From: Calditrichia bacterium
GTDB lineage: Bacteria; Calditrichota; Calditrichia; RBG-13-44-9; J075
Length of the DNA: 64,000 bases
NCBI GenBank assembly: GCA_050633245.1
Contig: JBOEGD010000012.1
Span: 64,001-128,000, forward strand
Reading direction: 5' to 3'
The position numbers and the translations under genes were made by a program. Positions 4,481 through 42,808 of this stretch are shown here, one piece after another. Each line of letters begins with the position of its first letter. Positions within the stretch are counted from its first letter, which is position 1. The notes beneath the pieces are model-generated. The model was not told where the DNA came from, searched no databases, and saw nothing but the letters and a program-made list of their open reading frames with translations.

Positions 4481-4526
4481 TTTATCCCCATTTGCAAATA
4501 CGGTTGGTCTTTTCGTGCTATGATGA

Positions 4527-24183: not shown

Positions 24184-24588
24184 ATGAATGTTTCACCGCT
24201 GCAAACAGGAATGCTTCTTGCACTTTTAGAGCTGCAACGCAATGGCAAAGTCATTTCAGTAGACTTGTCAGATGCAGAGCAGGCCGTACTGCACAATCTT
24301 GAAGAAGGTTTTGCGTTTCTTGCTGATCAATCCGATACGGTCAGCTTAAAGTCACTGCTAGACGGCATCACCTGTAGCGAAGTTCCCTGCCTTCGTCGCA
24401 AAAGTGAGTTATTGGCAATGATGTTTTTGATCGACTCGAGCACTGACGGTGAGGCAACAGAGCAAAATCGACAAGATTTTTTTCGCATGATGAATTCGTG
24501 CTATACTTGTTTTCAGGAATTCAGCGATATTATGCGCGGTTATTATCAGATAATCGATGCGCATGCCGAACAACAAAACGCAAAATAA
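24184..24588 (+). CDS. Soluble anti-sigma-like protein (degenerate zf-HC2/ZAS)
   Basis: DGEAT...FFRMMNSCYTCFQEF resembles HxxxCxxC without the His; directly after the sigma gene. Confidence 0.55.
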   Translation: MNVSPLQTGMLLALLELQRNGKVISVDLSDAEQAVLHNLEEGFAFLADQSDTVSLKSLLDGITCSEVPCLRRKSELLAMMFLIDSSTDGEATEQNRQDFFRMMNSCYTCFQEFSDIMRGYYQIIDAHAEQQNAK

Positions 24589-26093: not shown

Positions 26094-27878
26094 ATGCACA
26101 TTTCCAAAACGGGTCGTCACTTACCCATCCGCCCGGAATTGTTGAGCGTCGTCTGTGGTATTCTATGGGCTGCAGCTCTACTTCTGCTCAGCACGTCCAC
26201 AATGCTGACTGCACCCGGTAATTCTACCTTACTGTTTGATTTTGTTCAATCCGCGCTTCCCGGATATTCCCTAACCGCTATTGGCATTCTTATTGGCGTT
26301 TTTTGGGCCTTTGCCGCAGGATATATTTTTGGCTTTCTGATCGGTTTTGTCTACAAAATGCTCATGCGCCGCAAATTGCGCAATGTCAGCTCATCATTGT
26401 TAAAAATCAATCCGTCTGAGCAACCCTTTGTTATTCAGGAAGGCATCGGAGAGAAACCGTATACCATTGCCTTTGTTGCAAATCCATTCCTGCTTGTTCC
26501 GCAAGAAGACGGAACGAATGCCGTTCAGATTGATCCAATCATGGCTAAAAAGGAACTATTCCATCAGGTTGTGGTGCGCTGTTTACGCAGCTTCGCAAAC
26601 AACGGGCTACTGCGTCAGCCGGAAATTTTTAATCGCCTGAGGCTGGTTATCTATTTCGATCCAAATATCGAGCTGGATATTTTGCGCAATCGCCCCGTTA
26701 CATTAAACGCTGATGAAGCATTATGTATCGGATACGATCCGTCAATTATTGGCCCGATTATAGATACCGAGAAAATCTACTCGTATGTAAAAGAAAGAAT
26801 TACCTCATACTGCGACGTTGTTTATATGATTTCAGCAAGCGATATCTATACGCGTTCATCTGCACGTTTTACTCAGGAAGAGACTATGTCTGAGGGTGTA
26901 AATTACAATTTTACATTTACCCCGGACACTTCAGTTTTCGAAACGCGGCGGCATGCCTGGTGTGCAAAAGTTCCCGGTGTTGTGGCATTATCTGCCTGGG
27001 ACGATCGTTTAAAAACACCAGTTCATGAATTTGCACATGCAATGTCTTCCGTAGAAAACGGCGCAATTGACGATGAATATATCGATGATACTTTTGCCAG
27101 TCTTACCCACCGCATCAACAAGCAATATCGCGTAGGTTATATCTTAAATGATGCTGCAATTGAGCAGTTGAGAAAACATGCTCCGGCCATTGTTGGTACG
27201 TTAATGCCCTTAAAGGATCGTCCATTCGCTGATAGAATAGCGTTTCTGGATAAGCTTAAAGTCGTGCTATCAGAGGAAGAACTCAATCAGTATTTAGATG
27301 TCATCCTGGAGTATGCCTTCTTTCGTCCGGTATTTTTCCTTACCGAAACGTCTATCGCCAAAATTGTAAACGCTATTGATGTTGAAAGCGATAAAGACAA
27401 AGTACGCGCAGCCACCGTGCGCATGAAAGGCAAGCGCTTCTATTCACGTAGCTTGTTCTATCGCGAATTCGCCAAAGAAATTAGCAATCGGAATCTGTTT
27501 ATGCGTTATCGCTCGCTTGTAGCACGCTTTTCGCACTTTCAGAATTATCCGGTGCCGCATGTTTTTGCACATTACAAATTGGCCGGCAGCGAGATGAAGA
27601 CGTATTATTCAGATCGCAATCGCAGCGATAAAGAAATGTCATGGCGATCGTTTTCACCAGAGCGGAGCTCCACGCGGCTTTCCTGTATTATGGACATTGC
27701 TGTATACGGCTATCGTTTCGATAAATTGCTGTTCGATTGGATGTACGACCGCCTCTATGTGAAAATGAATCGACCGGCAACAGCCTGCAGCCATCCGGCA
27801 CCTCCCGGAAACGCGGCCGAAGATCGTACCCATACCAATATTCAGATCAATCTGCTAAATGAGGAGAATCGTTCATGA
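26094..27878 (+). CDS. Membrane-anchored zinc metalloprotease (M64-like) with holin-like N-terminal membrane domain
   Basis: N-terminal TM pair with LPGYS..IGI.IG..W.F..G...G..Y; HEFAH-x8-DDEY; downstream SCIM Met-turn-like motif; GGAGG RBS. Confidence 0.7.
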   Translation: MHISKTGRHLPIRPELLSVVCGILWAAALLLLSTSTMLTAPGNSTLLFDFVQSALPGYSLTAIGILIGVFWAFAAGYIFGFLIGFVYKMLMRRKLRNVSSSLLKINPSEQPFVIQEGIGEKPYTIAFVANPFLLVPQEDGTNAVQIDPIMAKKELFHQVVVRCLRSFANNGLLRQPEIFNRLRLVIYFDPNIELDILRNRPVTLNADEALCIGYDPSIIGPIIDTEKIYSYVKERITSYCDVVYMISASDIYTRSSARFTQEETMSEGVNYNFTFTPDTSVFETRRHAWCAKVPGVVALSAWDDRLKTPVHEFAHAMSSVENGAIDDEYIDDTFASLTHRINKQYRVGYILNDAAIEQLRKHAPAIVGTLMPLKDRPFADRIAFLDKLKVVLSEEELNQYLDVILEYAFFRPVFFLTETSIAKIVNAIDVESDKDKVRAATVRMKGKRFYSRSLFYREFAKEISNRNLFMRYRSLVARFSHFQNYPVPHVFAHYKLAGSEMKTYYSDRNRSDKEMSWRSFSPERSSTRLSCIMDIAVYGYRFDKLLFDWMYDRLYVKMNRPATACSHPAPPGNAAEDRTHTNIQINLLNEENRS

Positions 27879-28525
27879 CACCGTTTCATCCAAAATTCAG
27901 ACAGTTGTTATTGGCAGATAAAGATCATCAAAAAGCTGGATTAACCCCAAGCCTGCTGCACGAGTTCGAATGCCTTGGCGTTAAGCTCTCCTATATTCTG
28001 AACTACCCGCCAAACAATGCGCAGATCGAAGTTTACCTGTTAACCAATGATGGCTACAACAACATCAGTTATGTGCTACAGGGGAATAACGATTGGGGCA
28101 TCTTAAGTGACGTTCTTGGTGGAGTTATCGATCAGCCATTCCGCGGAGCACTCAGCTATCTTTCGCATATTGAAACACAGCTGCTCCAGTGGAATGATAT
28201 TGAGGGGGCACGCATATTCAAAGACCATCGCGCTCTCATCCTGCAGGAAACGAGTGTGAGTAGCCACCCAGTTGCCCTCGGAGATGGCCCGACACTGGAA
28301 GAGCTCCGAAGCGAGATTACATTTTTTCGCAACAACTTTCTGGTAAACTACGATACAGTGCATCAGCACTGGGTAGGCATACAGAAACGATCCGCAAACA
28401 AGCGTTATCTAAGCACGTCTACCGGCCTAAATCTATTTGGATTTTTCATTTCGCTATTTTTAACATTCTTTCCAAGACGAGAGCAAGAAATCAGAGTTCA
28501 GTACCCTTCAGGTGAGGCAAAATAA
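27875..28525 (+). CDS. Hypothetical protein with helical repeat module and C-terminal hydrophobic anchor
   Basis: ATGA-coupled to the upstream gene; shares a Y/F-x-L-T...F...F...Y/H...IL module with 26094; LNLFGFFISLFLTFFPRR tail. Confidence 0.75.
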   Translation: MTPFHPKFRQLLLADKDHQKAGLTPSLLHEFECLGVKLSYILNYPPNNAQIEVYLLTNDGYNNISYVLQGNNDWGILSDVLGGVIDQPFRGALSYLSHIETQLLQWNDIEGARIFKDHRALILQETSVSSHPVALGDGPTLEELRSEITFFRNNFLVNYDTVHQHWVGIQKRSANKRYLSTSTGLNLFGFFISLFLTFFPRREQEIRVQYPSGEAK

Positions 28526-31451
28526 ATTGCAGCGCGATCTCCTACATTGTCTGCTGGTATTGCTGCTCGGTTTGATGCTGACATCTTGCGAGCAACAAAC
28601 TGCCGCCGAGGCGATAAAGCTTGAACCACTATCCCCGGAGGAAGAATACCGTTCCCTGTTATCGGCGTCGGACGCTACCTTTGAGCGTGCAGAAAAAGTA
28701 GTTACGGAAAATCCACTGTATTTCAGACAGCGCGTTTATTATCAGCTTCTCGACAAAGCGCTTTCCATGAAAATAACTGGGGATGATAGTCTCGCAGAGG
28801 CAACATTTTCTGAGGCCAGGCAGATGGCGCAAATCTTCCAAAGCAAGCTGGATGATTCGTTTCTAATGGTACAGCACCGCTTTTCGACAACACTCAGCAA
28901 CAAAGATATTCATAAAAAGCTACAGGTCGATTCATTATATAAGCTGGGCAACGACTCGCTTCGCAAGAAGAACTATGCGGCGGCAGATAAATTCTTTGAG
29001 AATTCGATTCGCATCGCTAAAGAGATTGGCGACCAGCGTCGGGTTGTAGATAATCACTTGCGTCAGCAGTTTATGCTCGATCGTCAAAAACGGCTGCGAG
29101 AATCGATCTCGCGAGGAAAAGAAGCGCTGAAGCTCGCCAACACCATTGGGTATCACTATCGCGCAGCTTGGATATTGCACTACATGGCTCTTTCCAGTGA
29201 ACTGCTTGGCGAATATGCTGCAGCAGTCGACTACTCCAGCCGCGCCGCGAAAGCGGCTGGAATAACCAAAGACTATCGCTGCCTGTCCGATACTCAATGG
29301 CTTGAAGGCATAGCGCTGTATCGGTTGGGACGCTTTGCAGAGTCTGTTGAGACACTCAATCATGCACTCGAAGCCAGCATTCAACGAGAAAGCCTTTCTA
29401 TACAGGCCAAGATCCACAATTCACTGGCGAACTCGCATAAAAGCCTGGGCAATTATTCTAACGCCGAAGAAAACTACCTGGACTCCTGGAAACTATTCGA
29501 AAAGCTGGATCGTCAAAAAGACATTGCAATTACGCAGGCAAATCTTGCTGACCTCTATCGCGTAATGGGTGCGCAGGATGAAGCACTTAAAATGTTTAAG
29601 ATGGCCTATTTGTATTACGAAGCCAATGAGCGGCATTACGACCGTATCGCGATTGTGAAGCGCATGGGCGATACCTATCGTAATCAGGGCAATTTGAAAA
29701 TGGCCCGGACAAGTGGGCGCACTGCTCTGGACGAGATTCTTGTGCAGGAGAAAAGTGGCTCTGATGCCTACGCCCTGCTAAAACCGGAGGCTTACCTCAG
29801 CCTTGGCGATGTTGAACGTGATTTCGACAATACATCGGCAGCAATGCCCCTTTACCAGGAGGCATTGACCGCTTTTAAACTATTGGACAATCGGTTTGGG
29901 ATTCTGGAGGGTTATCTAAAAATAGGTGATTTGCATTTTCGCGACGGTAATAACTTCAAGGCAGAATCGTCATTAAAGAAGGCACGGGGAATTGCCGCCA
30001 GCATCCGGCACCCACGGGCACTGGCACTGGCCGATTTTTCTTTAGGCAAACTATGGACGCAGAAAAAGGAGTTCAGTAAGGCAGAAAAGGCTCTGGAAAA
30101 TGCGATTGTCGGCGTGGAGCAAACCCGCAGCAACATCGAAGATGAGAATCGCCTCAACGAGCTTCAAATTAGCTACTTCGCTACGATGCAGGACATATAT
30201 GATGAGATGGTTTATCTGCAGCTACTCATGGAACAGCCCAAAGAAGCATTCTACTATTCTGAGCAGGCGCGGGCACGCTCTCTGCGAGATCTCTTGCAAA
30301 GCGAAGGCGGTTCTGCGCCAATCGGCCTTGTGAAGCCTCAAGACCTATTAGCAGCAAACACGACCCTGTTAGAATACAAATTTGTAAAAGATGATCTTAT
30401 CTGTTTTGTGGTACAAGAGAACAATTTCGCCGCCGTAAAGCTGCCCCGGCAGCGTGAACAAACCGAAGCAGCAATTCGCGGTTTTTTGACCGCAATTGGT
30501 GCCAATCACTATCAGGATTTTCTCGAAAAAACCAAGCAAGATGGTGCAGGCTACTACAACTCAATGAACCTCTCGGCGAAACAGCTATGGCAGCTGCTGT
30601 TGAGTCCGCTTGGCAAGAAACCTTTGCAGGCAGAGCACCTGATCATCGTTCCCGATGGTCTACTTCACTACCTGCCCTTTGCGGCACTGGTAGACAGCAG
30701 TAATCAATTTCTGATAGAAAAACGCATTGTTTCCTATTTGCCCGCGGCTTCTTTATTGGACAGACAAATTGGCGCGCAACCCGCTGCAGACTGGCAGCTT
30801 CTGGCTGCTGCAACGCCGGAAATGGGATTACCATTTACCCGGCAGGAAGTTGAAGCGATCGCCGGATATTTCCAAAAGAGCACTCTACTCCACTCTATGA
30901 ATGAGCTTAGCGAAGAACAACTATTGAATCATTTCAACAAACAATTCGAGGTTATTCATCTCGCCTGTCACGCAGAAATAGATGAACGCACACCGCGCTA
31001 CTCAAGTATTTTCGTGGGCCCAACCAGCGGGATTGAAAAAACAAGCCTGCTGCGCGGCAGCGAGATTAGTGACAATCGCGACGACAACAATCTAATGGCT
31101 CATGAGCTTTATCGGCTAGACTTTAGCAATACCAAGCTCATCGGGCTCTCGGCATGCAAGAGCGCCACCGGTCGCTACGTCAGCGGCGAAGGAATGATTG
31201 GTTTTATTCATCCACTGATGTCGGCAGGCGCGGAGTCTGTCCTTGCGACGTTGTGGGAGATTAGCGATGAACATACGCCCAAACTCATGCAGCTTTTCTA
31301 CGAAAACTGGATAGAGAAAAAGATGGGACGCGCCGAAGCACTCGCAAGCGCACAACGGCAGATAATTCAGGCAACAAGAGAGAATTCAAATATAAATTAT
31401 GCGCACCCTCAACTTTGGGCAGCATTTACGCTGACCGGCGCACATAACTAG
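28512..31451 (+). CDS. Lipoprotein TPR-CHAT (caspase-like) protease
   Basis: Lipobox LTSC; long TPR array; IIVPDGLLHYLPFAAL, IHLACHA (His), LSACKS (Cys), TLWEISD, HPQLWAAF. Confidence 0.93.
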   Translation: MRQNKLQRDLLHCLLVLLLGLMLTSCEQQTAAEAIKLEPLSPEEEYRSLLSASDATFERAEKVVTENPLYFRQRVYYQLLDKALSMKITGDDSLAEATFSEARQMAQIFQSKLDDSFLMVQHRFSTTLSNKDIHKKLQVDSLYKLGNDSLRKKNYAAADKFFENSIRIAKEIGDQRRVVDNHLRQQFMLDRQKRLRESISRGKEALKLANTIGYHYRAAWILHYMALSSELLGEYAAAVDYSSRAAKAAGITKDYRCLSDTQWLEGIALYRLGRFAESVETLNHALEASIQRESLSIQAKIHNSLANSHKSLGNYSNAEENYLDSWKLFEKLDRQKDIAITQANLADLYRVMGAQDEALKMFKMAYLYYEANERHYDRIAIVKRMGDTYRNQGNLKMARTSGRTALDEILVQEKSGSDAYALLKPEAYLSLGDVERDFDNTSAAMPLYQEALTAFKLLDNRFGILEGYLKIGDLHFRDGNNFKAESSLKKARGIAASIRHPRALALADFSLGKLWTQKKEFSKAEKALENAIVGVEQTRSNIEDENRLNELQISYFATMQDIYDEMVYLQLLMEQPKEAFYYSEQARARSLRDLLQSEGGSAPIGLVKPQDLLAANTTLLEYKFVKDDLICFVVQENNFAAVKLPRQREQTEAAIRGFLTAIGANHYQDFLEKTKQDGAGYYNSMNLSAKQLWQLLLSPLGKKPLQAEHLIIVPDGLLHYLPFAALVDSSNQFLIEKRIVSYLPAASLLDRQIGAQPAADWQLLAAATPEMGLPFTRQEVEAIAGYFQKSTLLHSMNELSEEQLLNHFNKQFEVIHLACHAEIDERTPRYSSIFVGPTSGIEKTSLLRGSEISDNRDDNNLMAHELYRLDFSNTKLIGLSACKSATGRYVSGEGMIGFIHPLMSAGAESVLATLWEISDEHTPKLMQLFYENWIEKKMGRAEALASAQRQIIQATRENSNINYAHPQLWAAFTLTGAHN

Positions 31452-31492
31452 GGTGCAGAACAGCCCTTCAACAGCAACAGGAGGAACGAGCA

Positions 31493-31879
31493 ATGAATGA
31501 AGATCTTTTATTGCTGGCCGACACCACAACCAACCATGAAGGTGAAGAGCCACCGCCAACCGACATGTTTTATACACGTGCAGCTCTTCAGCGCTCCAGC
31601 GCTTTAGATGCCATGCGTCTTGGCGTCTCCATCGGCATTGCCTGGATGGTATTATTTTTACTTATTATTCCCGGTGCTCTCATGTCCGGAGGCAATGCCT
31701 CACTCTTGGTCGTGCAGGCATTTTACCCGGGATTTACGGCCGGAGCAAGCGGGATTCTATTTGGCCTGGCACTTAGCTTTGTATATGGCACCATCGGTGG
31801 GATTGCCATCGGTTCGCTATATAATTCGCTCGTCCAGCGTGAAGTTTTAGCTGGTGAGAATTACGAAACATATGGTTAG
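31493..31879 (+). CDS. Small membrane protein of a holin-like family, with acidic Pro-rich N-terminus
   Basis: Two TMs around FYPGF...GILFGL...VYG.IGG..IGSLYN; similar to the N-terminus of 26094; AGGAGG RBS. Confidence 0.78.
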   Translation: MNEDLLLLADTTTNHEGEEPPPTDMFYTRAALQRSSALDAMRLGVSIGIAWMVLFLLIIPGALMSGGNASLLVVQAFYPGFTAGASGILFGLALSFVYGTIGGIAIGSLYNSLVQREVLAGENYETYG

Positions 31880-31904
31880 TCAAATCAATTGATTGGAGTA
31901 AAAA

Positions 31905-32042
31905 ATGCCTCTAAATTATGATAGCGAATCAAAGCCAAAACGCGGTGGAAAAATCAAGCCGCCAGATGATCAGGAAGATCGGCCAACACGCCGCGGAAAT
32001 GATGAAGACAAGGATGAAGACCAAGATAAGGATCAGGAATAG
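31905..32042 (+). CDS. Unannotated 45-aa acidic peptide MPLNYDSESKPKRGGKIKPPDDQEDRPTRRGNDEDKDEDQDKDQE
   Basis: GGAG RBS 6 nt upstream, clean ORF filling the intergenic gap, hairpin right after the stop. Confidence 0.72.
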   Translation: MPLNYDSESKPKRGGKIKPPDDQEDRPTRRGNDEDKDEDQDKDQE

Positions 32043-32055
32043 ATAAGAATTCGTC

Positions 32056-32083
32056 GGCTGCCGAAATTTCGGCAGCCTGTTTT
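32056..32083 (+). terminator. Hairpin/terminator after the peptide gene
   Basis: Perfect palindrome GGCTGCCGAAATTTCGGCAGCC followed by TGTTTT. Confidence 0.7.
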
Positions 32084-32097
32084 ACCGGAGTTGGGAA

Positions 32098-35000
32098 ATG
32101 AGAGTCGTGCCTGGTTATATTTTGCTCTTTGCAATTTGCATTGCATTGATGCAGCCGCTGCATTCTCAGTCGGAAGCGGCTCAGAATCGCGATTACTATA
32201 GCGAACTGGCTAAGAAGCAGAACCAACTCCCGCGCAATCAACGCAACTACCTGCAAAAGATTGTTCAGAAGACGTCGAAAAATGACCATGCCTGGCTAAG
32301 CTTGTTGGATACGTATCTAATCGATAGCGAAATCGACGAGGCCGGAAGATTTTTTCGCCCACTGTTAAAAAAGGATGCCACCCGACCAGCGGCTCAGCGT
32401 ATTATGGCGCATCTTTTCCATATTCAAGGGGAAAACGACGAAGCACTAAAGCTGTTTCAACAAAGTTTGCAAACGTCGCCGACATCGCAAACCGTTAAGG
32501 AATTCGCACAATTTCTACGCAATACCAATCGCTCACCTGAGACAGATTTTTTACCGGATACGTTAAAGTCAGGCCCGTTACGAGAGCAGCTCGACGTCAA
32601 TTATGCTCTTTACACGTTCTCATCGAGAAATTCGCAGACTCCCCTCAAAGTTTATCTCCGCTCTCAGCATCCCACGGAGTCGGCACTCTTGCAAGCAGCT
32701 GAAGCAGCCTATCGCCTTCGCCAGTTCGCAAATGGCGACACGCTGCTCAGTAAAAGCCGCAGACAAGCCAAAAAAAATCACAACATCGATTGTCTTACCC
32801 AATCATTTATTCTCGAAAGTATTTGGCAGCAAGAGTTCGGGCTTTCTCATCAGCTCGCCATGTTGGATTCCGCCGAGTATTATGCTTCCCGCATAAATAA
32901 TTGGCGACTCTTGCAGAAAGTCTATGGTGAACGCGGGCTACTTCATTACGCCGACGACGATTATGCTGCCGCCATCAATCAGCTGCGCAAAGCGATTGAC
33001 ATTGCAGATAAGATGCAGCTAAATAATCATCTCGCCAAATGGCTTAGTCCGTACGGGAAAGCGTTATTTTATCTGGAATCTTATCAGGAAGCGCTGCAAG
33101 TTCACGAACGTGCCGAAGAATTGGCAACACGACTGAATCGCAAACGCCTTGCGCTTAACAGCCGAATAAACAAGGGCGACCTGCTGGCATACTTTTCACG
33201 TTACTACCTCGCAGAGCAGGAATTCTACAGCGCATATCGCGAAGCAGCCGAGCTGGGCTTAACGACTATTATGCGTCGCGCATATCCGCGAATTGGCGAC
33301 ATGCTTTTAGAGAGTAAACAGTTTGCATCCGCTCGCGAAATCTACCGCAATCATCTGGCAACACTTCATAAACGAGGTAAGCAAGACCAGCTACCTTATT
33401 GGCTGGGTCGAATTGCCGAAAGCTACGAACATGAACAAAAACTCGACTCTGCAACAGTTATCTATGAACAGGCTTTTCAACAAGCTCGAACGGTTAATGC
33501 CCCTTATTATATGAGCTCATACATGAGGCGCCTTGGCGAACTCGACAGGCGTAATGGACGTCCGATTCAGGCCCAACAACGCTTTCAAACCAGCCTTGAT
33601 ATAGCACATAGTTCTACAGACAGTAGCCTTATCGTCGATATCCACCGCTCTATGGGTGACTTGCATTTTCAACTAGCGGAGTACAACAAAGCCATTTCGG
33701 CATACCAGTCCGGCGTAGCAATGTATGAACGCATCCGTAACCGGCTTGTTTTAGAAGATCTTAAAATTGGCTATGCAACTCAGGGATATTCGCTCCATCA
33801 TCAGCTGGCCGGGTGCTTCAAAAAGCTGTATGCCGAAACGAATAATCCTGGCCTGCTGGACAGCCTGCTTTTTCATATGGATCTCGCCCGCGGTCGAACC
33901 CTAAAGGAGTTGCGTCTTAGCGGAGAGAGTAGCAACACAGGTCTTAGCTATTCTAAATCAATGGATATTCAACAACGTTTCAGCTATCGCAAGCGACGCT
34001 GGCGAGCGCTGCAAACATCTCATCAGAATCCAACTGCGCAGATGAAGAGCGATTTACTTTCCGCACGCAATGCCCTGCTCACCGACAGGTTGCGGCATCA
34101 AACGGCGGGCTCCAAAAAAACGGACGCGCAGCCGCTCTCGCGTACGATACTTCAAACCAGGCTCAGGCAGATTGATCATACGGCATTGGCTTTTCACATC
34201 CAGGACAGCCTCTCCTTTACTCTTATAATAAGCCCCGATACGATACGTATCGTAAGTATGATCATCGACGAACAACAGCTGACAAAATCGATCAAGAAAC
34301 TCATTGCTCCCTTTCACAATCTAAGCAGCTTGGAAACTCACACGACTATTTATGAAGCGCAAGAGGCATTCAACCTGCATCAACAGCTTATTAAACCGCT
34401 GGAAACACACATACAGCTGGTAGAAAACATACTCATCATTCCAGACACACCTCTGCTTAACCTGCCGTTCGACTTACTTCTTCGAACACAACCACAACAA
34501 GAGCGTTATTTACCGACCGATTTCCCGGACTACACCGCACACTTACTCGTGCAGAAGCATTGTTTTACCATTATGCCAGATCTGCAGCTGCCAACCGCTT
34601 CCGAGCAAAGACATTCTGCAGATCCCGAGCTGCTCGTTATTGCAAATCCATTTGCTGAAGCTGAGTTTATGCCCGGATATTTTGAGCAGAATCAATTTCG
34701 AGCCGGCGGAATTTTTCTTCCTCTCCCATTTACGGAAGTGGAAGCTGCTGCCATAAAAGCACTTTATCCCAAAACGCAGGTTTTAAAGCGACGTCATGCC
34801 ACATCCAAGACGCTAAAATCGATAGCCTCGGATTACGATATAATTCACCTCGCAACGCATGCTTTTGCGGACTCAGCATTCGATATTTTTTCCGGGCTTG
34901 TTCTACACGCCTCGCAGGATTCACTGGACGACGGTTTTTTAATGGGTTATGAGATTGAACAACTTCACCTCAATTGTGAACTTGTAGCACTCAGTGCCTG

Positions 35001-35391
35001 TGAAACCGCGCTCGGGAAACAGGTAGCCGGAGAAGGCGTGCTTGGCCTGCCACGTCTTTTTCTTGCGGCGGGAGCAAAATCAGTGCTTCAAACCTGCTGG
35101 AAAGTTGATGATGGCTTTACGTCAAAGTTAATGCCTGAGTTTTATAAACGCCTCCTTGTGGAAGGGAAAACGCGCCCCGAGGCTCTTGCCGGTGCGAAAC
35201 GCTTTTTTCTTACACCACCAGTTACCAAACAGCAGACCTATTATCAACATCCGCTCTATTGGGCCTCCTTTAATCTCTTTGGTTCTCCGGGCCTGCCGGT
35301 ACAGTCACAAAAGAGTAGATGGTCCCTCCTTTTCCTCCTTCTTGCCGGAGTGTTTCTCTATGTGCTCTATCGTATAAAAACACGTCGCTAA
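32098..35391 (+). CDS. Exported TPR-CHAT protease with C-terminal membrane anchor
   Basis: Signal peptide; TPRs; LIIPDTPLLNLPFDLL, IHLATHA (His), LSACET (Cys), HPLYWASF; tail WSLLFLLLAGVFLYVLYRIKTRR. Confidence 0.93.
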   Translation: MRVVPGYILLFAICIALMQPLHSQSEAAQNRDYYSELAKKQNQLPRNQRNYLQKIVQKTSKNDHAWLSLLDTYLIDSEIDEAGRFFRPLLKKDATRPAAQRIMAHLFHIQGENDEALKLFQQSLQTSPTSQTVKEFAQFLRNTNRSPETDFLPDTLKSGPLREQLDVNYALYTFSSRNSQTPLKVYLRSQHPTESALLQAAEAAYRLRQFANGDTLLSKSRRQAKKNHNIDCLTQSFILESIWQQEFGLSHQLAMLDSAEYYASRINNWRLLQKVYGERGLLHYADDDYAAAINQLRKAIDIADKMQLNNHLAKWLSPYGKALFYLESYQEALQVHERAEELATRLNRKRLALNSRINKGDLLAYFSRYYLAEQEFYSAYREAAELGLTTIMRRAYPRIGDMLLESKQFASAREIYRNHLATLHKRGKQDQLPYWLGRIAESYEHEQKLDSATVIYEQAFQQARTVNAPYYMSSYMRRLGELDRRNGRPIQAQQRFQTSLDIAHSSTDSSLIVDIHRSMGDLHFQLAEYNKAISAYQSGVAMYERIRNRLVLEDLKIGYATQGYSLHHQLAGCFKKLYAETNNPGLLDSLLFHMDLARGRTLKELRLSGESSNTGLSYSKSMDIQQRFSYRKRRWRALQTSHQNPTAQMKSDLLSARNALLTDRLRHQTAGSKKTDAQPLSRTILQTRLRQIDHTALAFHIQDSLSFTLIISPDTIRIVSMIIDEQQLTKSIKKLIAPFHNLSSLETHTTIYEAQEAFNLHQQLIKPLETHIQLVENILIIPDTPLLNLPFDLLLRTQPQQERYLPTDFPDYTAHLLVQKHCFTIMPDLQLPTASEQRHSADPELLVIANPFAEAEFMPGYFEQNQFRAGGIFLPLPFTEVEAAAIKALYPKTQVLKRRHATSKTLKSIASDYDIIHLATHAFADSAFDIFSGLVLHASQDSLDDGFLMGYEIEQLHLNCELVALSACETALGKQVAGEGVLGLPRLFLAAGAKSVLQTCWKVDDGFTSKLMPEFYKRLLVEGKTRPEALAGAKRFFLTPPVTKQQTYYQHPLYWASFNLFGSPGLPVQSQKSRWSLLFLLLAGVFLYVLYRIKTRR

Positions 35392-35513: not shown

Positions 35514-37343
35514 ATGAAAGCGCCAAAACCGACATTTTCGGCCTCGTCGAACGCTACAACAGATGCCCTGCCGAAACGTCAGCAAATAGACGAACGCTAC
35601 AAGTGGAATTTGCAGCATATATTCGACTCAAATGAGGATTGGGAGACTGAGCTCAATGAGATAGAAGAGGGACTTTCCAAATTCGACAGCTTTGCAGGGA
35701 CTTTGGGACAATCTGCTGAGTCACTTTTTCAGTGTTTGAGATATCAGCACAACCTGGAAGAACGCTTTGGTCGACTATTTCTTTATTCCGGTCTTAGCAA
35801 TGACCAGGACACCTCCGAATCTCTTTATCAGGATTACCGCGGACAGGCATCTGCACTGATGGCAAAAATTAATCAGAGAACTTCCTTTATTCAGCCTGAG
35901 ATTCTTGCACTTGGTAAGAGAAAAATTGATTCGTTTTTACAGCAGCATCAGAGCCTACAGGAATTTCAGCACCTATTGGAAGATATTTTTCGTACTGTCG
36001 CTCATGTGCTTCCGCCGGAACAGGAGCAGTTGCTTGCACTTACCGGTGAACTGGCTCAGGGAGCATCGAATATTTTTTCCATGTTCAATAATGCAGACAT
36101 CCAATTTTCATCGATTCTCGATGAAAATGAACGAGAAGTTGAAGTCACCAAAGCCAGACATCAGCGATTTATGGAATCGAAAAATCGCCGAGTCCGTGAA
36201 GATTCCTATCGCGCTCTATATGGTGCCTATCATAAATGGACCAACACGCTGGCGGCAACGCTTTCAACGGCTGTTAAAAGAAATCTGTTTTATGCAAAGG
36301 CGCGTAGATATAACACGGCACTGGAAGCTGCACTGGATAGTGAGAACATTCCGGTTGGGGTTTATGATAATGTGATTAATACAATTAATCAGAATCTAAA
36401 CCCACTACAGAACTATATGAGTCAGCGTGCAAAGATACTGGGGTTGGAGACGGTACGTCCATGGGATCTGACTGTACCGCTTGTTACAGAGGTGGATTTT
36501 AATATTCCGTATGATGATGCAGCAGGAATCTTACGTGAGGCGCTTGCGCCACTCGGCGAAGACTATCTTTCTGCAATCGATAAAGCATTTGAGGATGGCT
36601 GGGTCGACGTTTATGAAAATCGTGGAAAGCGTTCAGGTGCCTACTCCTGGTCGACGTATGGAGCTCATCCGTATATACTGATGAATTACAACGCTACGTT
36701 GAACAATTTGTTTACTCTGGCTCATGAGTTGGGACATGCACTTCACTCCTACTACACTCATCAATCACAGCCAAATCATTACAGCCACTACACAATTTTT
36801 GTGGCTGAGGTAGCATCTACGCTGAATGAAGCATTACTTATGGATTATTTACTTAAGCGCGAAAGCGGTGAAAGACGCCGTTATTTGATTAATGAATACA
36901 TCGATCAGATTCGTGGTACCGTTTATAATCAAGCATTGTTTGCCGAGCTGGAACGCGACATTCACACTCATGCAGAAAGTGGGCAGACACTTACCGGAGA
37001 GTATCTGAATGGCCTTACAGCTTCACTTTATAATAAATATTTAGGAGAGCACTTTCAAATCGATGACCTCTACCAGATAAACTGGTGCCGTATTCCACAT
37101 TTTTATTACAACTTTTACGTCTATAAATATGCCACAGGCTTTTCTGCTGCCACGGCACTATCACGTAAAATACTAGATGGCGATACTTCCGCTCGAGAGG
37201 CATATCTATCGTTTTTATCACGCGGAAATTCAGACTATTCGATCAATTTACTGAAGGATGCCGGAGTTAATATGCTTTCTGCGGAGCCAATTGAAGCGAC
37301 AACAACCTTGATGATGAATTTATTGAAACAGTTTTCAGAATAA
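35514..37343 (+). CDS. pepF: Oligoendopeptidase F (M3B)
   Basis: YKWNL, GKRSGAYS, HPYILMNY, TLAHELGHALHS, FVAEVAS, IPHFYYNFYVYKYATG. Confidence 0.96.
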   Translation: MKAPKPTFSASSNATTDALPKRQQIDERYKWNLQHIFDSNEDWETELNEIEEGLSKFDSFAGTLGQSAESLFQCLRYQHNLEERFGRLFLYSGLSNDQDTSESLYQDYRGQASALMAKINQRTSFIQPEILALGKRKIDSFLQQHQSLQEFQHLLEDIFRTVAHVLPPEQEQLLALTGELAQGASNIFSMFNNADIQFSSILDENEREVEVTKARHQRFMESKNRRVREDSYRALYGAYHKWTNTLAATLSTAVKRNLFYAKARRYNTALEAALDSENIPVGVYDNVINTINQNLNPLQNYMSQRAKILGLETVRPWDLTVPLVTEVDFNIPYDDAAGILREALAPLGEDYLSAIDKAFEDGWVDVYENRGKRSGAYSWSTYGAHPYILMNYNATLNNLFTLAHELGHALHSYYTHQSQPNHYSHYTIFVAEVASTLNEALLMDYLLKRESGERRRYLINEYIDQIRGTVYNQALFAELERDIHTHAESGQTLTGEYLNGLTASLYNKYLGEHFQIDDLYQINWCRIPHFYYNFYVYKYATGFSAATALSRKILDGDTSAREAYLSFLSRGNSDYSINLLKDAGVNMLSAEPIEATTTLMMNLLKQFSE

Positions 37344-37568: not shown

Positions 37569-37604
37569 TTGACTATTGGTCAACCCTTGAGAATGGATTC
37601 TCAA
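37569..37604. promoter_or_regulatory. Two adjacent palindromic operator-like sites
   Basis: TTGAC-N5-GTCAA (37569-37583) and TTGAGAAT-GG-ATTCTCAA (37587-37604), upstream of ATG 37674. Confidence 0.4.
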
Positions 37605-37673
37605 AAGACGCTCTTTCATAATAGTAGTATTTTATGTCTTGCAAAGTGTCTTTTTCGGAAAGGAGACCTTAAA

Positions 37674-40607
37674 ATGTTGCGCAAGCTACATGCTCTTGTG
37701 CTTTATAGCATCTTTATGTTGTTAATTGGAAGTTTCTCTCTGGCAGCACAAACAAATTATTCTTGGACAAATGGTGGTGGTGATAACGACTGGGCCAACA
37801 ACGAGAACTGGTCTCCCTCAGGTGTCCCTGCAAGTAACGATACCGTTACGATAAGTGCTGGAGACTCTATCGTTGTTAACTCAGACGTTACTATCGATAG
37901 TCTTTCTGTGCAGAGCGGAATATTAAACTGCCTTGCACAGGTTACGGTAAATAGTGGAATGGTTTTTCGCGGAGGCGATCTTCGTGGAGATGATACCCTT
38001 CTTATTACCAGCGGGGCTACTCTGGATTTTATCTCATCGAGCTTTAAGGATCTTTGGGGCTTAACGCTTAGAAATGAAGGAACGGCGACATGGAGCGGTA
38101 GTGGACGTATTTCACTTCGAGACAAGTCGACTATTACCAACGCATCCGGTGCTCTTTTTGACGTCCAGGGTAATTTCTTTATGGACTATGTGCAGCTGGA
38201 TACCGGTGGAAATTTCGAAAATTTCGGTACGCTTCGCAAAAGCTCCGGAACTGGAACGGCAACTATTGATCCCACATTCTACAACACCGGTACCGTTGAC
38301 GTCGAAGACGGTACGCTGCGTTTTGAGCGTGGCGACAGCACCGAGAGCAGCACTGGTGTTTTCAATGCAGATTCCGGCACTACAATTGAGATGGACGAAC
38401 GTATTTTCAGTTTTGACGGTGCCAGCTTTACCGGTAGTGGAACAACAGAGTTCCAGGATGCCGTGTTGACACTTAACGGATCGGGAATGACCATTGCCTC
38501 AGGTGCTACAGTAACAGCTGATGATCAGGATTGTGAGATAGACGGCAGTGGTCCGATAACGGTAAGCGGAACGTTCGATTTATTGGAATGTACGATATCG
38601 GGAAGCGGAGCCTGGACCAATAATGGTACGGTACAGTTCACCACGAGCTCAGCAAAAGTCATTGAAACACGCACACTCACCAATAATGCCACTGTTCTCT
38701 GGAGTGGTAGCGGCGTCATCAATCTGAATAGCGGAGCGAGCATCAACAACACTGGCACTGGTAATTTTAATATTCAGGTCAATAGCCGAATTGATGAAGA
38801 CGTAGAACTGACTGCCGGTTTTACCAACTCCGGAACGATCACAAAAACCGTTGCAACAAGTACAACAAACTTTGAAGTCGCCGTTACAAACACCGGAACG
38901 ATTAACACAAACACTGGTCGTATTTCGTTTGAAGATGGCAGCAGTAATATCGGTGCAACCTTCAACACGGCATCGGGAGCAACTTTCGACTTCAATGGTG
39001 GAACCCAGGTAGTAGATGGTATTACCGTTGCCGGAGCAGGCTCTTTTGAAGTGAGCGGAACGGTATTAACCTTAACCGGGAATATAGGCGTCTCTGCTGG
39101 TGGGGTTTTAGATCTTGTCAATAATGATGTCAATGGAAGTGGCACCATTACCAACAATGGAACGATTAACTGGTTTGGCGATGACCTGCGTGGCGGCGGC
39201 GAAATTATTAACAATAACGTCATGACGGTAGACGGAAGCGGTGTTAAACTGCAGACCAACTTCGATATTACAAATAATGGCACCATCACCTGGACTGGTT
39301 CAGGGGAGTGGCGGATTACCAACACGTCCAGCATTACGATTGGCAGCGAAGGCACACTCGATATTCAGAATGATGAAAATCTCTCCGATCTTGGAACCGG
39401 AACAAACAGTATTATTAATAATGGTACCATTACAAAGACTGCCGGAGCGGCCTCTTCAACACTTGGAGTTGATGTAACAAATAATGGCACTATTTCCTGC
39501 ACTGCAGCAAATCTGGCATTTCAGGAAGATTTTGTAAACGCCAGCACCGGTATTCTCAGCGGCCTGAATTCATTGAGTTTCTCAGGCACAAACAGCTTTA
39601 CGAATAATGGAACAACGAGTCCCGGCACAAATAGTGTTGGCGACTTAAGTTTTATCGGCACTTTTGAACAATCGTCTTCAGCCAACCTCGAAATTACTCT
39701 TGGTGGCATGGTTCCGGCGAGCAACCAGGATCAACTCAGCGTAAACGGCGATATCGATCTGGATGGAGAGTTGGAAATCACGATTCCAGATGGCTACTAT
39801 CCTGCGGTAGCGGATAGTTTTATCGTTCTCACTTTCAACGGTTCACGCACGGGCACGTTCAGTACCTTCACTGCCCCGAGTGTTGGCGGAAGCCCACAGT
39901 TTGAAGTTCTATATCGCTCCACTTATGTTGTAGTCCGTACGCTGATACAAAACGGTACAACTGTGAACCTCACAGCTTTTCTTGAAGGTGCATATCGCAG
40001 TGGTTCAATGACAACGCAACTTCGCGATGATGGTCTTATCCCAACCTCCCAACCGTATTCCGGCAGCCCCTGGAATTACTCTGGTAGTGAAAGCGTTAGC
40101 AGCATTCCGGCAGACGTGGTAGACTGGGTATTACTTGAGCTTCGCACCGGCACAGGTTCGGGCACATTAGCTGGAAGAAGAGCAGCTTTCATTCTCAGCA
40201 ATGGAAGTATTGTAGATACGAGTGGCAGTGGAACAGTCTCCTTTGATGATGTGGGAACGGGAAGTTATTACGTTATAATTTATCACCGAAACCACTTGTC
40301 TGTTATGTCGGCCTCTACTGTGACACTGACGACCAGCAGTAGTAACTACAACTTCAGCACCGCACAGTCTCAGGCATACAGCAACACCGGCGACGGCATG
40401 GTAGACATCACCGGGGGAGTTTTTGGATTATTTGCCGGGGAGACTAACGACTCAGGTATTATTACCAATGCCGATAAATCTGCCGTAATAAGTAACCTGA
40501 ATACTACAGGCTATAAGGTTTCGGACACCAATTTTTCGGGCATTGTTACAAATGCCGACAAAACGCCAATGAACAGCAATCTTAACGCCGCAACGCAGGT
40601 GCCGTAA
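37674..40607 (+). CDS. Secreted beta-helix/passenger-like protein with C-terminal dockerin-like domain
   Basis: Start moved to ATG 37674 (AAGGAG RBS, signal peptide); WSPSGVP N-cap; G/T/N/S-rich repeats; FLEGAY..VDWV..HRNHL domain; duplicated ETNDSGIITNADK/DTNFSGIVTNADK loops. Confidence 0.85.
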   Translation: MLRKLHALVLYSIFMLLIGSFSLAAQTNYSWTNGGGDNDWANNENWSPSGVPASNDTVTISAGDSIVVNSDVTIDSLSVQSGILNCLAQVTVNSGMVFRGGDLRGDDTLLITSGATLDFISSSFKDLWGLTLRNEGTATWSGSGRISLRDKSTITNASGALFDVQGNFFMDYVQLDTGGNFENFGTLRKSSGTGTATIDPTFYNTGTVDVEDGTLRFERGDSTESSTGVFNADSGTTIEMDERIFSFDGASFTGSGTTEFQDAVLTLNGSGMTIASGATVTADDQDCEIDGSGPITVSGTFDLLECTISGSGAWTNNGTVQFTTSSAKVIETRTLTNNATVLWSGSGVINLNSGASINNTGTGNFNIQVNSRIDEDVELTAGFTNSGTITKTVATSTTNFEVAVTNTGTINTNTGRISFEDGSSNIGATFNTASGATFDFNGGTQVVDGITVAGAGSFEVSGTVLTLTGNIGVSAGGVLDLVNNDVNGSGTITNNGTINWFGDDLRGGGEIINNNVMTVDGSGVKLQTNFDITNNGTITWTGSGEWRITNTSSITIGSEGTLDIQNDENLSDLGTGTNSIINNGTITKTAGAASSTLGVDVTNNGTISCTAANLAFQEDFVNASTGILSGLNSLSFSGTNSFTNNGTTSPGTNSVGDLSFIGTFEQSSSANLEITLGGMVPASNQDQLSVNGDIDLDGELEITIPDGYYPAVADSFIVLTFNGSRTGTFSTFTAPSVGGSPQFEVLYRSTYVVVRTLIQNGTTVNLTAFLEGAYRSGSMTTQLRDDGLIPTSQPYSGSPWNYSGSESVSSIPADVVDWVLLELRTGTGSGTLAGRRAAFILSNGSIVDTSGSGTVSFDDVGTGSYYVIIYHRNHLSVMSASTVTLTTSSSNYNFSTAQSQAYSNTGDGMVDITGGVFGLFAGETNDSGIITNADKSAVISNLNTTGYKVSDTNFSGIVTNADKTPMNSNLNAATQVP

Positions 40608-40609
40608 TC

Positions 40610-41461
40610 ATGATTAAAACAAACAACACATTGTTTCGGGCTATTCTTGTGCTGATGCTGGCGCTAGGCAACCTGTTCGCGCAAACCGGCCCTCGGCAGG
40701 CGAACATTATTGCTGTTAACCCGGTGGTAACCGCGATATCCTTTAGTTTTGACGTCGTTCTTTTACCAACGACTGTCTGGGGAAACAATGTCTACGACAA
40801 AGCACTGGGAGACTGTAGCTGGTTTTTTCAGTACAATGATAGTGCTTTAACAAATCCGGAGATAGTTTATACCGCTCCAGAGGTAGACACAGCATTCGGC
40901 TATACCAACAGCATTGCAATAATCGCAAATCGCCTGGGTTTAACCACCGATGTTTCTCTCGGCACCTTTAGCGGCACCGAGCTGCTTCAGGGACAGCGCT
41001 ATCACTTATTCACCATTCGCATGGACATTATTGATCCGTCGCGAAATTCCGGCATAATGTGGGATACTCTTAATACCGGTCTCTTAACCGTAATAGACAA
41101 TATCGTTCAAACAACGGCATCCTCAGACACAGATGTACCGCTCTCGCTAACGGCTATTGGTGATAATCTTGCAGAAGTACCTGAAAAGTTCAGGCTGTTC
41201 CAAAACTATCCGAATCCATTCAACCCGGAAACAACGATACGCTTTGAAATGCCTATTGCATCACGCGTAAAAGTGACGGTATTCGATATTTTAGGTCGAC
41301 ACATTCGACAGATATCCAATGATCAGCTTCAGGCGGGCTCCCATCTATTTAAATGGGATGGTCGCAACGATTCCGGTGAATCGGTCGGCTCGGGTCTTTA
41401 CCTTCTTGTTACGGAAACAGAGACCGCGAAAACCACATTAAAAATGACGCTTTTAAAATAA
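40610..41461 (+). CDS. Secreted cohesin-like domain + FlgD-Ig/T9SS-type CTD protein
   Basis: FSFDVVL...LGDCSWFFQYNDSAL...LFTIRM beta-sandwich pattern; NYPNPFNPET...WDGRNDSG. Confidence 0.75.
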   Translation: MIKTNNTLFRAILVLMLALGNLFAQTGPRQANIIAVNPVVTAISFSFDVVLLPTTVWGNNVYDKALGDCSWFFQYNDSALTNPEIVYTAPEVDTAFGYTNSIAIIANRLGLTTDVSLGTFSGTELLQGQRYHLFTIRMDIIDPSRNSGIMWDTLNTGLLTVIDNIVQTTASSDTDVPLSLTAIGDNLAEVPEKFRLFQNYPNPFNPETTIRFEMPIASRVKVTVFDILGRHIRQISNDQLQAGSHLFKWDGRNDSGESVGSGLYLLVTETETAKTTLKMTLLK

Positions 41462-41501
41462 CAACGACATCATTTACTACGGATGTAAGAAGGAATTTGG
41501 A

Positions 41502-42641
41502 ATGAAATCAATCAGAGAGAATTGCATACGGATAACGTTTTTTCTGTTTTTGCTGGTGCCCGGCTTTACGTTCGCACAAACAGCGAACATCAGCATCCAG
41601 AATGCTCAACAATCCAGTGGCGTTTTCACATTTGAAATTCATATTGAACCAACAAACAATTGGGGTAGCGGCACATTCGACAAGCGTTTAGGCGACTGTA
41701 GTTGGGCCTTCACGTTTAATACCAGCGCCATAAACAGCCCGTCGTTAACAGTGGTAGGCAGTTCGGTCGATCCGGGTGATGGCTACACCAATTCCGTACA
41801 AATTTTAGGGTCCCGCCTGATTGTAACAACGGAGTTCGACATTGGAGATGGTAGTGGGGTGGATATTAATCAGAGCACCGAATACCATCTTTACACTGTT
41901 GCTCTGAACATTATTGCCGATCCCGCCGATTCAGAAGTTCAGTGGGACCAGATCAATACCGGAGTCTTTAATATTCCTGATGATGGTATCATAGTGGGCT
42001 ATTCCGGTGATGGCGATATTCCCCTGCCTGTTTCATTATCTGCTTTTAGCGCGACCGCGGTAGATGGAAATATCAATCTGGCGTGGACAACGCAAAGCGA
42101 ATTGAATAATGCGGGATTCGAACTCTACAGGTCACTACAGCAAGAAGGCAACTATCAGATTATCAGCTCTTACCTGTCTAACAGCGACCTGATTGGCGCT
42201 GGCACATCGAATATTACTCGTGAATACGAATTCACAGACAGTAATGTTGATGTTGGTCTGACCTATTATTATCGTCTTGCCGATGTGGATCTCAGTGGAA
42301 TACGCACCTTTCATGAACCAATATCCGGAAGCGTTAGTGAAGCCGATATCGTTCCGGAACGCTTTATTGTTCATCAGAACTATCCAAATCCGTTTAACCC
42401 GGAAACCCAGATTGTGTTTGAACTGCCAGAGCGGGAGAACTCCAGAGTAAATGCCGTAGTCTATGATATGCTCGGACGCAGTGTTCGCACCTTGTTCTCA
42501 GGCAGACTTGAAGCCGGGGTTCACCGGCTGATCTGGAATGGCCGTGACAATAATGAGCAGTCACTTGCTTCCGGAACGTATATTCTGCAGCTGCAAACGG
42601 CATCCAATACGCGCTCAGTAAAAATGTTACTCCTCAAGTAA
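41502..42641 (+). CDS. Paralogous cohesin-like + Ig linker + FlgD-Ig/T9SS-type CTD protein
   Basis: DKRLGDCSWAF...GYTNS...YHLYTV...WDQINTG shared with 40610; PLPVSLSAF...WTTQSELNNAGF; NYPNPFNP. Confidence 0.78.
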   Translation: MKSIRENCIRITFFLFLLVPGFTFAQTANISIQNAQQSSGVFTFEIHIEPTNNWGSGTFDKRLGDCSWAFTFNTSAINSPSLTVVGSSVDPGDGYTNSVQILGSRLIVTTEFDIGDGSGVDINQSTEYHLYTVALNIIADPADSEVQWDQINTGVFNIPDDGIIVGYSGDGDIPLPVSLSAFSATAVDGNINLAWTTQSELNNAGFELYRSLQQEGNYQIISSYLSNSDLIGAGTSNITREYEFTDSNVDVGLTYYYRLADVDLSGIRTFHEPISGSVSEADIVPERFIVHQNYPNPFNPETQIVFELPERENSRVNAVVYDMLGRSVRTLFSGRLEAGVHRLIWNGRDNNEQSLASGTYILQLQTASNTRSVKMLLLK

Positions 42642-42656
42642 GTTTAAGAAGTCTAC

Positions 42657-42683
42657 TCGCAGATTGCCCTGGGCAATCTGCGA
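42657..42683. terminator. Strong hairpin after the cohesin-like genes
   Basis: TCGCAGATTGCCC-T-GGGCAATCTGCGA. Confidence 0.6.
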
Positions 42684-42808
42684 ATCCTGCATTCTGATCT
42701 ATTAATTACCTAGACATAACGTTGCAAACCTCAAGACGCAGTAATCTGCTTTCGATAATAATTATTGTCCCATGGAATGGGAATGAGGTTTAACAAGAAG
42801 GGATTCTT

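Follow-up and report, generated by a model that had tools for sequence, protein, structure and literature searches.

The closest described counterpart of the system considered here is DdvA/DdvS of Myxococcus xanthus, in which a periplasmic protein composed of tetratricopeptide repeats (TPR) and a CHAT protease domain is fused to a zinc anti-sigma factor (PMC11506125). The authors of that account liken the TPR-CHAT architecture to separase, describe the activating signal of DdvA as still unknown and expect it to be a protein or peptide docking on the TPR-CHAT region (PMC11506125). The locus analysed here lies in a 64,000-nt stretch of a Calditrichia bacterium (GCA_050633245.1, contig JBOEGD010000012.1, positions 64,001 to 128,000), which is referred to as the window. 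It encodes two TPR-CHAT proteins (CHAT1 and CHAT2), a membrane protein of 128 amino acids (aa) named TM128 and, directly before CHAT2, an open reading frame (ORF) of only 45 codons. This ORF is a real protein-coding gene, for which the comparative evidence is decisive. Its product is proposed to be an orphan disordered micro-protein that acts as the cognate TPR ligand of CHAT2, a reading that is based on a predicted complex and to which we give about an even chance of being correct.

Like DdvA (PMC11506125), the proteins of the window belong to the separase/craspase type of TPR-CHAT with a His-Cys dyad, are probably extracytoplasmic and occur in a sigma/anti-sigma context. The differences are threefold: here two separate, apparently exported TPR-CHAT proteins exist and neither is fused to an anti-sigma factor; the products of the sigma-like and anti-sigma-like genes have diverged beyond the reach of Pfam and are related to sister-module proteins only; and a dedicated micro-protein gene stands before CHAT2, whereas the accessible part of the DdvA paper describes no such partner (PMC11506125). 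At most, the cluster counts as a divergent analogue of DdvA/DdvS with its parts split up.

Three further systems offer partial likenesses. In the RRNPP pairs of Firmicutes (Rap-Phr, NprR-NprX, PlcR-PapR and PrgX), an ORF of about 40-50 codons lies beside the gene of a TPR protein with a peptide-binding groove, and the pairs are fast co-evolving and lineage-specific. Their receptors, however, are cytoplasmic with a helix-turn-helix or phosphatase output, and the peptide is secreted, processed and re-imported; here the receptor appears to be exported and has a caspase-like protease output, the peptide has no signal sequence, and there is no sequence relation. Securin resembles the micro-protein in being a small, disordered and charged protein that binds the clan CD protease separase along its helical repeats and controls it. 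It differs in occupying the active site as a pseudo-substrate and in sharing the compartment of separase, whereas no active-site contact is predicted here, the compartments differ and homology is absent. LGN/GPSM2/Pins and kinesin light chain also hold an extended charged peptide in an inner TPR groove lined by Asn, Tyr and Arg, as is predicted for CHAT2, but they are eukaryotic scaffolds without a protease domain. No description of a peptide partner for a periplasmic or envelope TPR-CHAT protein was found in the openly accessible literature, subscription-only papers and supplements being outside our view.

The ORF, its GGAG site and a 22-bp palindrome behind it were all present as the original prediction, made from the sequence alone, had described them. 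The ORF had been placed between two CHAT genes; CHAT2 is indeed directly downstream, but the upstream neighbour is TM128 and CHAT1 lies one gene further up. The members of the micro-protein family are 43-45 aa long and strongly charged, basic in their first part and acidic towards the end, and the window protein consists of a variable N-terminus (residues 1-9), an invariant basic/Pro/acidic core (10-30) and an acidic K/D/E tail (31-45). Modelled alone, it shows no secondary structure (pTM 0.15) and is predicted to be unstructured.

A scan of metagenome contigs with TM128 as the query found three related loci, L038, L039 and L040, with 74-81% identity in TM128. All three carry an intact 43-codon ORF at the equivalent place, with TM128 on one side and CHAT2 on the other, and the idea of a genuine, conserved gene tied to the second CHAT gene is thereby borne out. 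L039, situated on a 1-Mb contig, displays the full order CHAT1-TM128-peptide-CHAT2-PepF (PepF being oligoendopeptidase F), with the peptide gene at 4568-4699. The Shine-Dalgarno sequences of the homologues are found at equal spacing and read AAGGAG in L038 and L040 and AGGAGGAG in L039. The protein shared by L038 and L040 (P0003), which NCBI names a hypothetical protein of a Calditrichota metagenome-assembled genome, was returned independently by phmmer from 1.84 billion representatives. Two closer versions exist: P0004, the second member of the peptide's 90% cluster, visible as a protein sequence without gene neighbours, differs by E8D, G31R and K36R; X1, a 21-kb contig about 95% identical to the window, shows 46 differences over 901 nt and zero indels. 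The five versions known (window, P0004, X1, L039 and L038/L040) are all intact, and in the window, L038, L040 and L039 the gene has an ATG start and a strong Shine-Dalgarno sequence.

The substitutions among these versions indicate that purifying selection acts on the peptide in the reading frame of the ORF. Between L039 and L038 the peptide gene has 15 synonymous differences over 23.3 synonymous sites and 13 non-synonymous differences over 105.7 non-synonymous sites, giving an omega of 0.092 (Fisher p 5e-7). Between the window and L039 its synonymous sites are saturated (proportion of synonymous differences, pS, 1.0), with an aa identity of 63% and a proportion of non-synonymous differences (pN) of 0.18; the respective values are 60% and 0.27 for CHAT1, 49% and 0.36 for CHAT2, and 81% and 0.12 for TM128. 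The peptide is thus kept better than either CHAT protein and less well than TM128. In X1, eight of the nine differences listed within the ORF fall at third codon positions (binomial p 0.001, which becomes 0.09 if all six of the 46 differences that are unplaced are non-third changes in the ORF) and six of the nine are synonymous; 15 of 19 are at third positions in the control gene TM128. The three-version alignment shows K10, K12, R13, G15-R26 (GKIKPPDDQEDR), R29 and R30 to be invariant, a pattern written K-KR-GKIKPPDDQEDR--RR, and the 12-residue core is identical throughout although synonymous changes fall inside it. The N-terminus is variable, and the K/D/E tail is kept in composition, with an indel.

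Composition tests within the genome are favourable but weak. The codon log-likelihood in the ORF frame is 0.446 bits per codon (other five frames, -0.27 to +0.09) and exceeds that of 96% of equally long stretches (45 codons) sampled from the long ORFs of the genome, a score that D/E/K-rich sequence can reach through composition alone. A GGAG at -22 to -5 precedes 632 of the 2556 long ORFs of this genome versus 4.3% of random 18-mers.

It could be supposed that no protein gene exists here, and that the ORF is a chance one or part of a GGA-rich small RNA with its own terminator that works like a Csr/Rsm sponge. Rfam gives a weak, sub-threshold match to RsmY at 31959-32078 (E 0.33; 15.6 bits, where the gathering score is 57). 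It arises from the GGA-rich codons and the hairpin and is consistent with such an RNA, as are the presence of CsrA elsewhere in the genome and the failure to find homologues outside one clade. The substitutions nevertheless follow the codon frame (third positions in X1, omega 0.09), the 12-residue core is identical despite synonymous changes, and the ATG, the Shine-Dalgarno sequence and the open frame are kept in L038-L040 although the hairpin that would end the RNA is missing there. This explanation is strongly disfavoured, with next to no chance of being right.

The palindrome begins 13 bases past the peptide stop codon. It is the top terminator-like site of a 15-kb region (9 pairs, 7 of them GC, tail TGTTTTACCG) and folds at -19.9 kcal/mol (z -2.87), which one of 200 shuffles equals. 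The palindrome had been reported together with a T-run; it is perfect as claimed, but the run amounts to merely four T (32080-32083), and given a four-U tract the function of the hairpin as a terminator is doubtful. The distance from the hairpin to the ATG of CHAT2 is about 20 nt, which leaves no space for a promoter, so CHAT2 must be transcribed through the hairpin; a scan that does not cover the promoter types of this phylum listed no sigma-70-like site on the forward strand in 31450-32100. In X1 the stem is intact, with an A>G change in the loop at 32066 and a T>C change in the T-run at 32081 (UCUU). The hairpin is missing in L038, L039 and L040, where the 53-55-nt spacers fold no better than shuffles (z 0.36 and -1.08). 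It is lineage-specific and no conserved part of the system. Because it is absent from these three loci and its T-run is broken in X1, attenuation is not conserved, and the earlier suggestion that the hairpin gives an excess of peptide over the downstream protease did not hold up. The stem-loop may modulate read-through into CHAT2 in the window lineage.

These features also bear on a cis-acting role, in which the ORF is a leader whose translation tunes the read-through or translation of CHAT2, either by way of the hairpin in this lineage or because ribosomes pause at KPPDD and in the acidic stretch; the product itself would then be of lesser importance. In the window, L039 and L038 alike, 53-55 nt separate the stop codon from the start of CHAT2, and in the window this spacer holds the -19.9 kcal/mol stem-loop and is too short for a promoter besides. 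Motifs such as PP-D and stretches of acidic residues are known to pause or destabilise ribosomes (EF-P-dependent XPPX motifs and intrinsic ribosome destabilisation). The PP codons, however, are about 75 nt before the stop, too distant for a ribosome stalled on them to unwind the stem; the conservation of the aa sequence extends beyond PP over the basic cluster and the tail; the hairpin is neither shared by L038-L040 nor followed by an intact T-run in X1; and the complex prediction described below points to a role in trans. We consider a leader function quite improbable.

Several other observations concern the hairpin and the spacers. The palindrome was considered as a repeat element and rejected, the 22-mer being unique in the genome even with up to 4 substitutions. 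In L039 a 180-nt spacer (4388-4567) separates TM128 from the peptide gene, where the window has a gap of 25 nt; 143 nt of it fold at -43 kcal/mol (z -1.86). Compared with the window hairpin, this places a stem-loop 5' of the peptide gene in one lineage and 3' of it in the other. In locus L028 (genus g9) the spacer between a 60-aa gene and the CHAT2 orthologue contains, at an equivalent position, the arms CTGCCGA…TCGGCAG, which equal the inner 7 bp of the window arms. This arm pattern is present 5 times in the genome of the window, and its appearance in L028 may be a coincidence or a shared site.

The peptide is confined to one genus-level Calditrichota clade of uncultured marine bacteria. Word-based searching of 5.8 billion clusters gave the self-match alone when the query was the window sequence by itself, a 3-row profile used in the same way gave P0003 and P0001 and nothing further, and a word search of these clusters for longer proteins scored none of 79 candidates. 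A six-frame profile and pattern scan of 185,579 species genomes produced 599 pattern matches, none of them confirmed, and no match to the peptide was found in Pfam, NCBIfam, PHROGs, PADLOC, PDB sequences or the ESM Atlas. P0002, a 1540-aa protein hit by phmmer at E 5e-9, was rejected as a relative. This Cys-rich repeat protein contains a segment (…HGGKPCPGDDSENRP…) 12 times over, with 53% identity to residues 10-28 of the peptide. It has no counterpart of the basic and acidic regions on either side, and we take the likeness for a chance one inflated by the repeats. Searches for relatives found no fused form of the peptide, and the idea that the ORF is joined to CHAT2 or TM128 by an in-frame fusion or a frameshift was dismissed, as the frames differ and the offset is unequal between the window and L039.

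Within this clade the peptide accompanies CHAT2. It is present with an adjacent CHAT2 in the window, X1, L039 and L038, where both flanks are seen, and in L040, versus none of the six family-level loci (L002-L007) that have a full-length TM128 without an adjacent CHAT2. In those six loci TM128 is followed by PepF (L002, L003 and L005) or by other genes, and no CHAT gene is present at that place. Since L002, L003 and L005 have TM128 directly before PepF, the peptide and CHAT2 are a pair inserted between TM128 and PepF, and they travel together as such in one genus-level clade.

The complex of CHAT2 (residues 120-1070, 10-row alignment) and the peptide (3-row alignment) was predicted with ESMFold2. 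Three runs scored 0.71, 0.69 and 0.72, above a pass mark that 58 of 80 solved complexes attain, as do 2 of 110 mismatched pairs, and the best of three controls scored 0.00. The runs share at least 64% of their contacts, with a partner pLDDT of at least 49. The confident interface comprises peptide residues 4-5 and 12-30, with the lowest expected error from I17 to Q23, and the contacts are made with CHAT2 residues 205-565 in the TPR array, which forms a groove rich in Tyr, Asn and Arg. The predicted contact segment coincides with the conserved core, the alignment having been seen by the model. Between the window and L039, identity is 65% over the 49 contact residues of CHAT2 and 52% over the remainder of 200-569 (permutation p 0.051), and in 8 orthologues with other upstream partners the contact residues are 6-29% identical versus 20-27% for the rest. 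Such a pattern resembles a fast-evolving specificity groove, with marginal statistics. The solved TPRs nearest in sequence to that of CHAT2 are LGN/GPSM2/Pins and kinesin light chain (E 1e-17 to 4e-9), which are known from peptide-in-groove complexes.

The suggestion that the peptide binds a CHAT protein or modulates it is therefore supported, as far as binding to CHAT2 is concerned, by a controlled complex prediction. The original prediction further took two basic-RG sites for substrate or decoy sites, so that the peptide would be a substrate, a decoy or a signal processed by the CHAT catalytic site after these positions. The KR and RR pairs are invariant, CHAT2 binding is predicted, and clan CD proteases often cleave after basic residues, all of which would suit such a role. 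The second RG, however, is retained in only two of the five versions (RRGN in the window and RRGK in X1, as compared with RRRN in P0004, RRRD in L039 and RRQD in P0003). Moreover, the model puts the peptide in the TPR groove, away from the catalytic residues: the listed contacts all lie within 205-565 and no confident one involves His921 or Cys968, the residues that are not named being uncertain and not excluded. This placement favours a ligand over a substrate or decoy. The obstacle of different compartments discussed below applies equally to cleavage, and we regard cutting at the RG sites as very improbable and less likely than the part of a cognate ligand.

Full-length orthologues of CHAT2, 24-31% identical, were found in 15 of 15 other family genomes searched, and the catalytic dyad His921/Cys968 is invariant in 10 orthologues. 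The gene directly before the orthologue was surveyed at the 12 loci with a complete ORF and upstream DNA (L019-L023, L026-L028, L030, L034, L036 and L037), truncated or partial matches being left out (L024, L025, L029, L031-L033 and L035). It usually encodes a small and very divergent protein of 58-199 aa with a low-complexity Pro/acidic tail, and some of these upstream partners have a membrane helix or a lipoprotein signal. By a post-hoc criterion the tail is present in 8 of 12 partners versus 2.3% of 4421 long ORFs, a count that overstates independence, as L022/L034 and L027/L028 are close kin. The partners in L022, L034, L026 and L036 align weakly as one family (E 0.004-0.04). Further upstream, a zf-HC2 anti-sigma factor and a sigma factor of the extracytoplasmic function (ECF) type (Pfam Sigma70_r2/r4/ECF) are encoded. 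The 45-aa peptide has no detectable homology to the upstream partners of the CHAT2 orthologues. Its origin as a remnant of the 107-148-aa partners was rejected (hhalign probability 0.3%, 4 aligned columns), and tblastn of these partners against the genome gave nothing at the peptide locus.

Where the peptide and CHAT2 would meet is the main difficulty. The original prediction had pointed to a topology problem, as the peptide lacks a signal peptide, and this problem is real. The GRAVY of the peptide is -2.5 and its maximum 9-residue hydropathy -1.0, without any hydrophobic stretch, and judged by hydropathy it has no hydrophobic signal segment or twin-arginine leader for Sec or Tat export. Double-glycine leaders are 15-25 aa long with spaced hydrophobic residues and end in a conserved GG, GA or GS; the peptide has GG at residues 14-15 in the window lineage and RG in L039 and P0003, and its N-terminus is hydrophilic and variable, which does not agree with that pattern. 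A C39-peptidase exporter (PF03412) gave no match in the 97%-complete genome, while control genomes were positive. CHAT2 of the window, L039 and L038, on the other hand, begins with a signal-peptide-like segment, and in the window its C-terminus is a hydrophobic anchor followed by RIKTRR. Given their signal-like N-termini, both CHAT1 and CHAT2 are probably extracytoplasmic. By sequence, the peptide and CHAT2 could come together through leakage or holin-like release or through an unrecognised export route, or they might never meet, the docking being an artefact and the peptide acting in the cytoplasm.

Under the reading favoured here, the TPR superhelix of CHAT2 would hold the invariant core as an extended strand in its concave groove, and the peptide would activate or inhibit CHAT2 or regulate it in the manner of a pseudo-substrate. 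The peptide/CHAT2 pair stands at the end of a co-directional cluster headed by the sigma-like and anti-sigma-like genes, an arrangement that may resemble a split form of the DdvS/DdvA switch. Binding of the ligand would then gate CHAT-dependent envelope proteolysis and thereby gene expression, provided that the two come into contact, either because the peptide leaks or is released in a holin-like way through the inner membrane or by an export route that is not recognised.

Several points weigh against this proposal. The peptide has neither an export signal nor a C39 exporter in its genome, while the body of CHAT2 is exported to judge from its sequence. The docking pass may reflect, at least partly, a memory of solved TPR-peptide complexes; the peptide alignment has 3 rows, the partner pLDDT is 49-55, and the controls included neither a scrambled peptide nor another TPR protein. 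The extra conservation of the contact residues is marginal (p 0.051), the family is limited to one small clade, so that its function is not checkable through wider co-occurrence, and the unplaced X1 differences given above belong to the same account.

The same points lend weight to a different possibility, that the gene product is a genuine micro-protein of the cytoplasm with a target other than CHAT2, and that the docking is the generic result of presenting a TPR groove with an extended peptide. Its targets might then be the sigma-like or anti-sigma-like proteins or the cytoplasmic tails of TM128 or CHAT2, or it might have a stress-type hydrophilic role. Besides the want of an export route for the peptide and the likeness of the CHAT2 TPR to TPRs solved with groove peptides, from which the model may dock by memory, this alternative is in line with the upstream partners in L022, L026 and L036, which likewise have no export signals. 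Two results stand in its way: the complex score of 0.71 against three controls at 0.00, with a contact segment that is the invariant core, and the occurrence of the peptide beside CHAT2 only, in contrast to the six TM128 loci without CHAT2. We hold a cytoplasmic target to be unlikely, though deserving of serious weight.

A bolder form of the cognate-ligand proposal turns the topology problem into a function. The leaderless and abundant peptide would be a reporter of leakage that docks in the anchored CHAT2 after a breach of the inner membrane, whether by the holin-like TM128, a phage or a pore-forming attack, and starts the sigma/anti-sigma-like cascade; the Pro/acidic-tailed small proteins of the family would be the ligands of co-evolving grooves. 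We judge this extension rather improbable.

The features of the locus are collected in Table 1.

Table 1. Features of the peptide/CHAT2 locus and of the surrounding gene cluster (window coordinates).
Feature	Position	Strand	Remark
Sigma-like protein, 217 aa	23518-24171	+	cluster head
134-aa protein with C-x-x-C	24184-24588	+	cluster head
Anti-sigma-like membrane protein, 400 aa	24678-25880	+	cluster head
594-aa protein, N-terminal membrane domain like TM128	26094-27878	+	E 1.2e-7 to TM128
CHAT1: lipoprotein-like signal (…LTSC), TPR, CHAT	28512..31451	+	Pfam CHAT 8.7e-62
TM128, 128-aa membrane protein	31493..31879	+	directly upstream of peptide gene
Shine-Dalgarno GGAG of peptide gene	31895..31898	+	6 nt 5' of ATG
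45-aa micro-protein gene	31905..32042	+	ATG start; translation MPLNYDSESKPKRGGKIKPPDDQEDRPTRRGNDEDKDEDQDKDQE
Conserved core, codons 12-30, KRGGKIKPPDDQEDRPTRR	31938..31994	+	invariant columns and predicted CHAT2 TPR-groove contact segment
Perfect 22-bp GC-rich palindrome, then TGTTTTA (32078-32084)	32056..32077	+	two 11-nt arms, 100% complementary
GGAG of CHAT2	32088..32091	+	10 nt 3' of hairpin
CHAT2, 1097 aa: signal-peptide-like N-terminus, TPR superhelix, CHAT, C-terminal anchor	32098..35391	+	Pfam CHAT 4.4e-60 and TPR families
Oligoendopeptidase F (M3, PepF)	35514..37343	+	Pfam Peptidase_M3 1.5e-74

The 217-, 134- and 400-aa proteins at the head of the cluster have no Pfam or NCBIfam match of their own. 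A second CHAT module of this genome, on contig C18, includes a sigma-like protein that the 217-aa protein matches at E 3e-20 and that itself scores 22.9 bits on Sigma70_r2, below the cut-off of 24 bits. The 400-aa protein matches, in its C-terminal part, the zf-HC2 anti-sigma proteins encoded ahead of CHAT2 orthologues. The module on C18 (L045) has the order sigma-like protein, 139-aa protein, anti-sigma-like protein, a 69-aa membrane protein ending in …EDPPPTEPTGSGEKPNTGGIRNR, and CHAT.

TM128 and the N-terminus of the 594-aa protein score 37-43 bits on NCBIfam holin_4, below its 70-bit cut-off. TM128 gave no PHROG match and, at 37 bits, was rejected as a bona fide holin. By language-model features it is DUF5676-like (0.89), which serves as a lead only. 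The large C-terminal part of the 594-aa protein has a HEFAH motif (HExxH-type) and may be that of a membrane-tethered metalloprotease. The genes of the 594-aa protein, a 216-aa protein and CHAT1 overlap by 4 nt (27875-27878) and 14 nt (28512-28525), which suggests translational coupling in the cluster. Past PepF, the region 37569-46324 encodes several large secreted proteins (1012 and 1171 aa among them) with N-terminal parts that look alike by eye, and two smaller proteins that share a C-terminal …NYPNPFNPET… segment, which may be a type IX secretion sorting domain.

The peptide family is a clean case of a conserved bacterial micro-protein below the usual annotation cut-offs that has no relatives among billions of sequences. 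Were the peptide indeed a reporter of leakage, the cell would possess a ligand of its own making, dedicated to sensing that its membrane is no longer intact. Envelope TPR-CHAT proteases (caspase/separase-like) linked to alternative sigma factors are widespread, and DdvA is the only one studied. Its trigger is explicitly described as unknown (PMC11506125). The present locus supplies a candidate ligand of 45 residues that can be synthesised, with a 12-residue invariant core and a predicted docking site, and what envelope TPR-CHAT proteases sense may thereby become a question that is testable in vitro.

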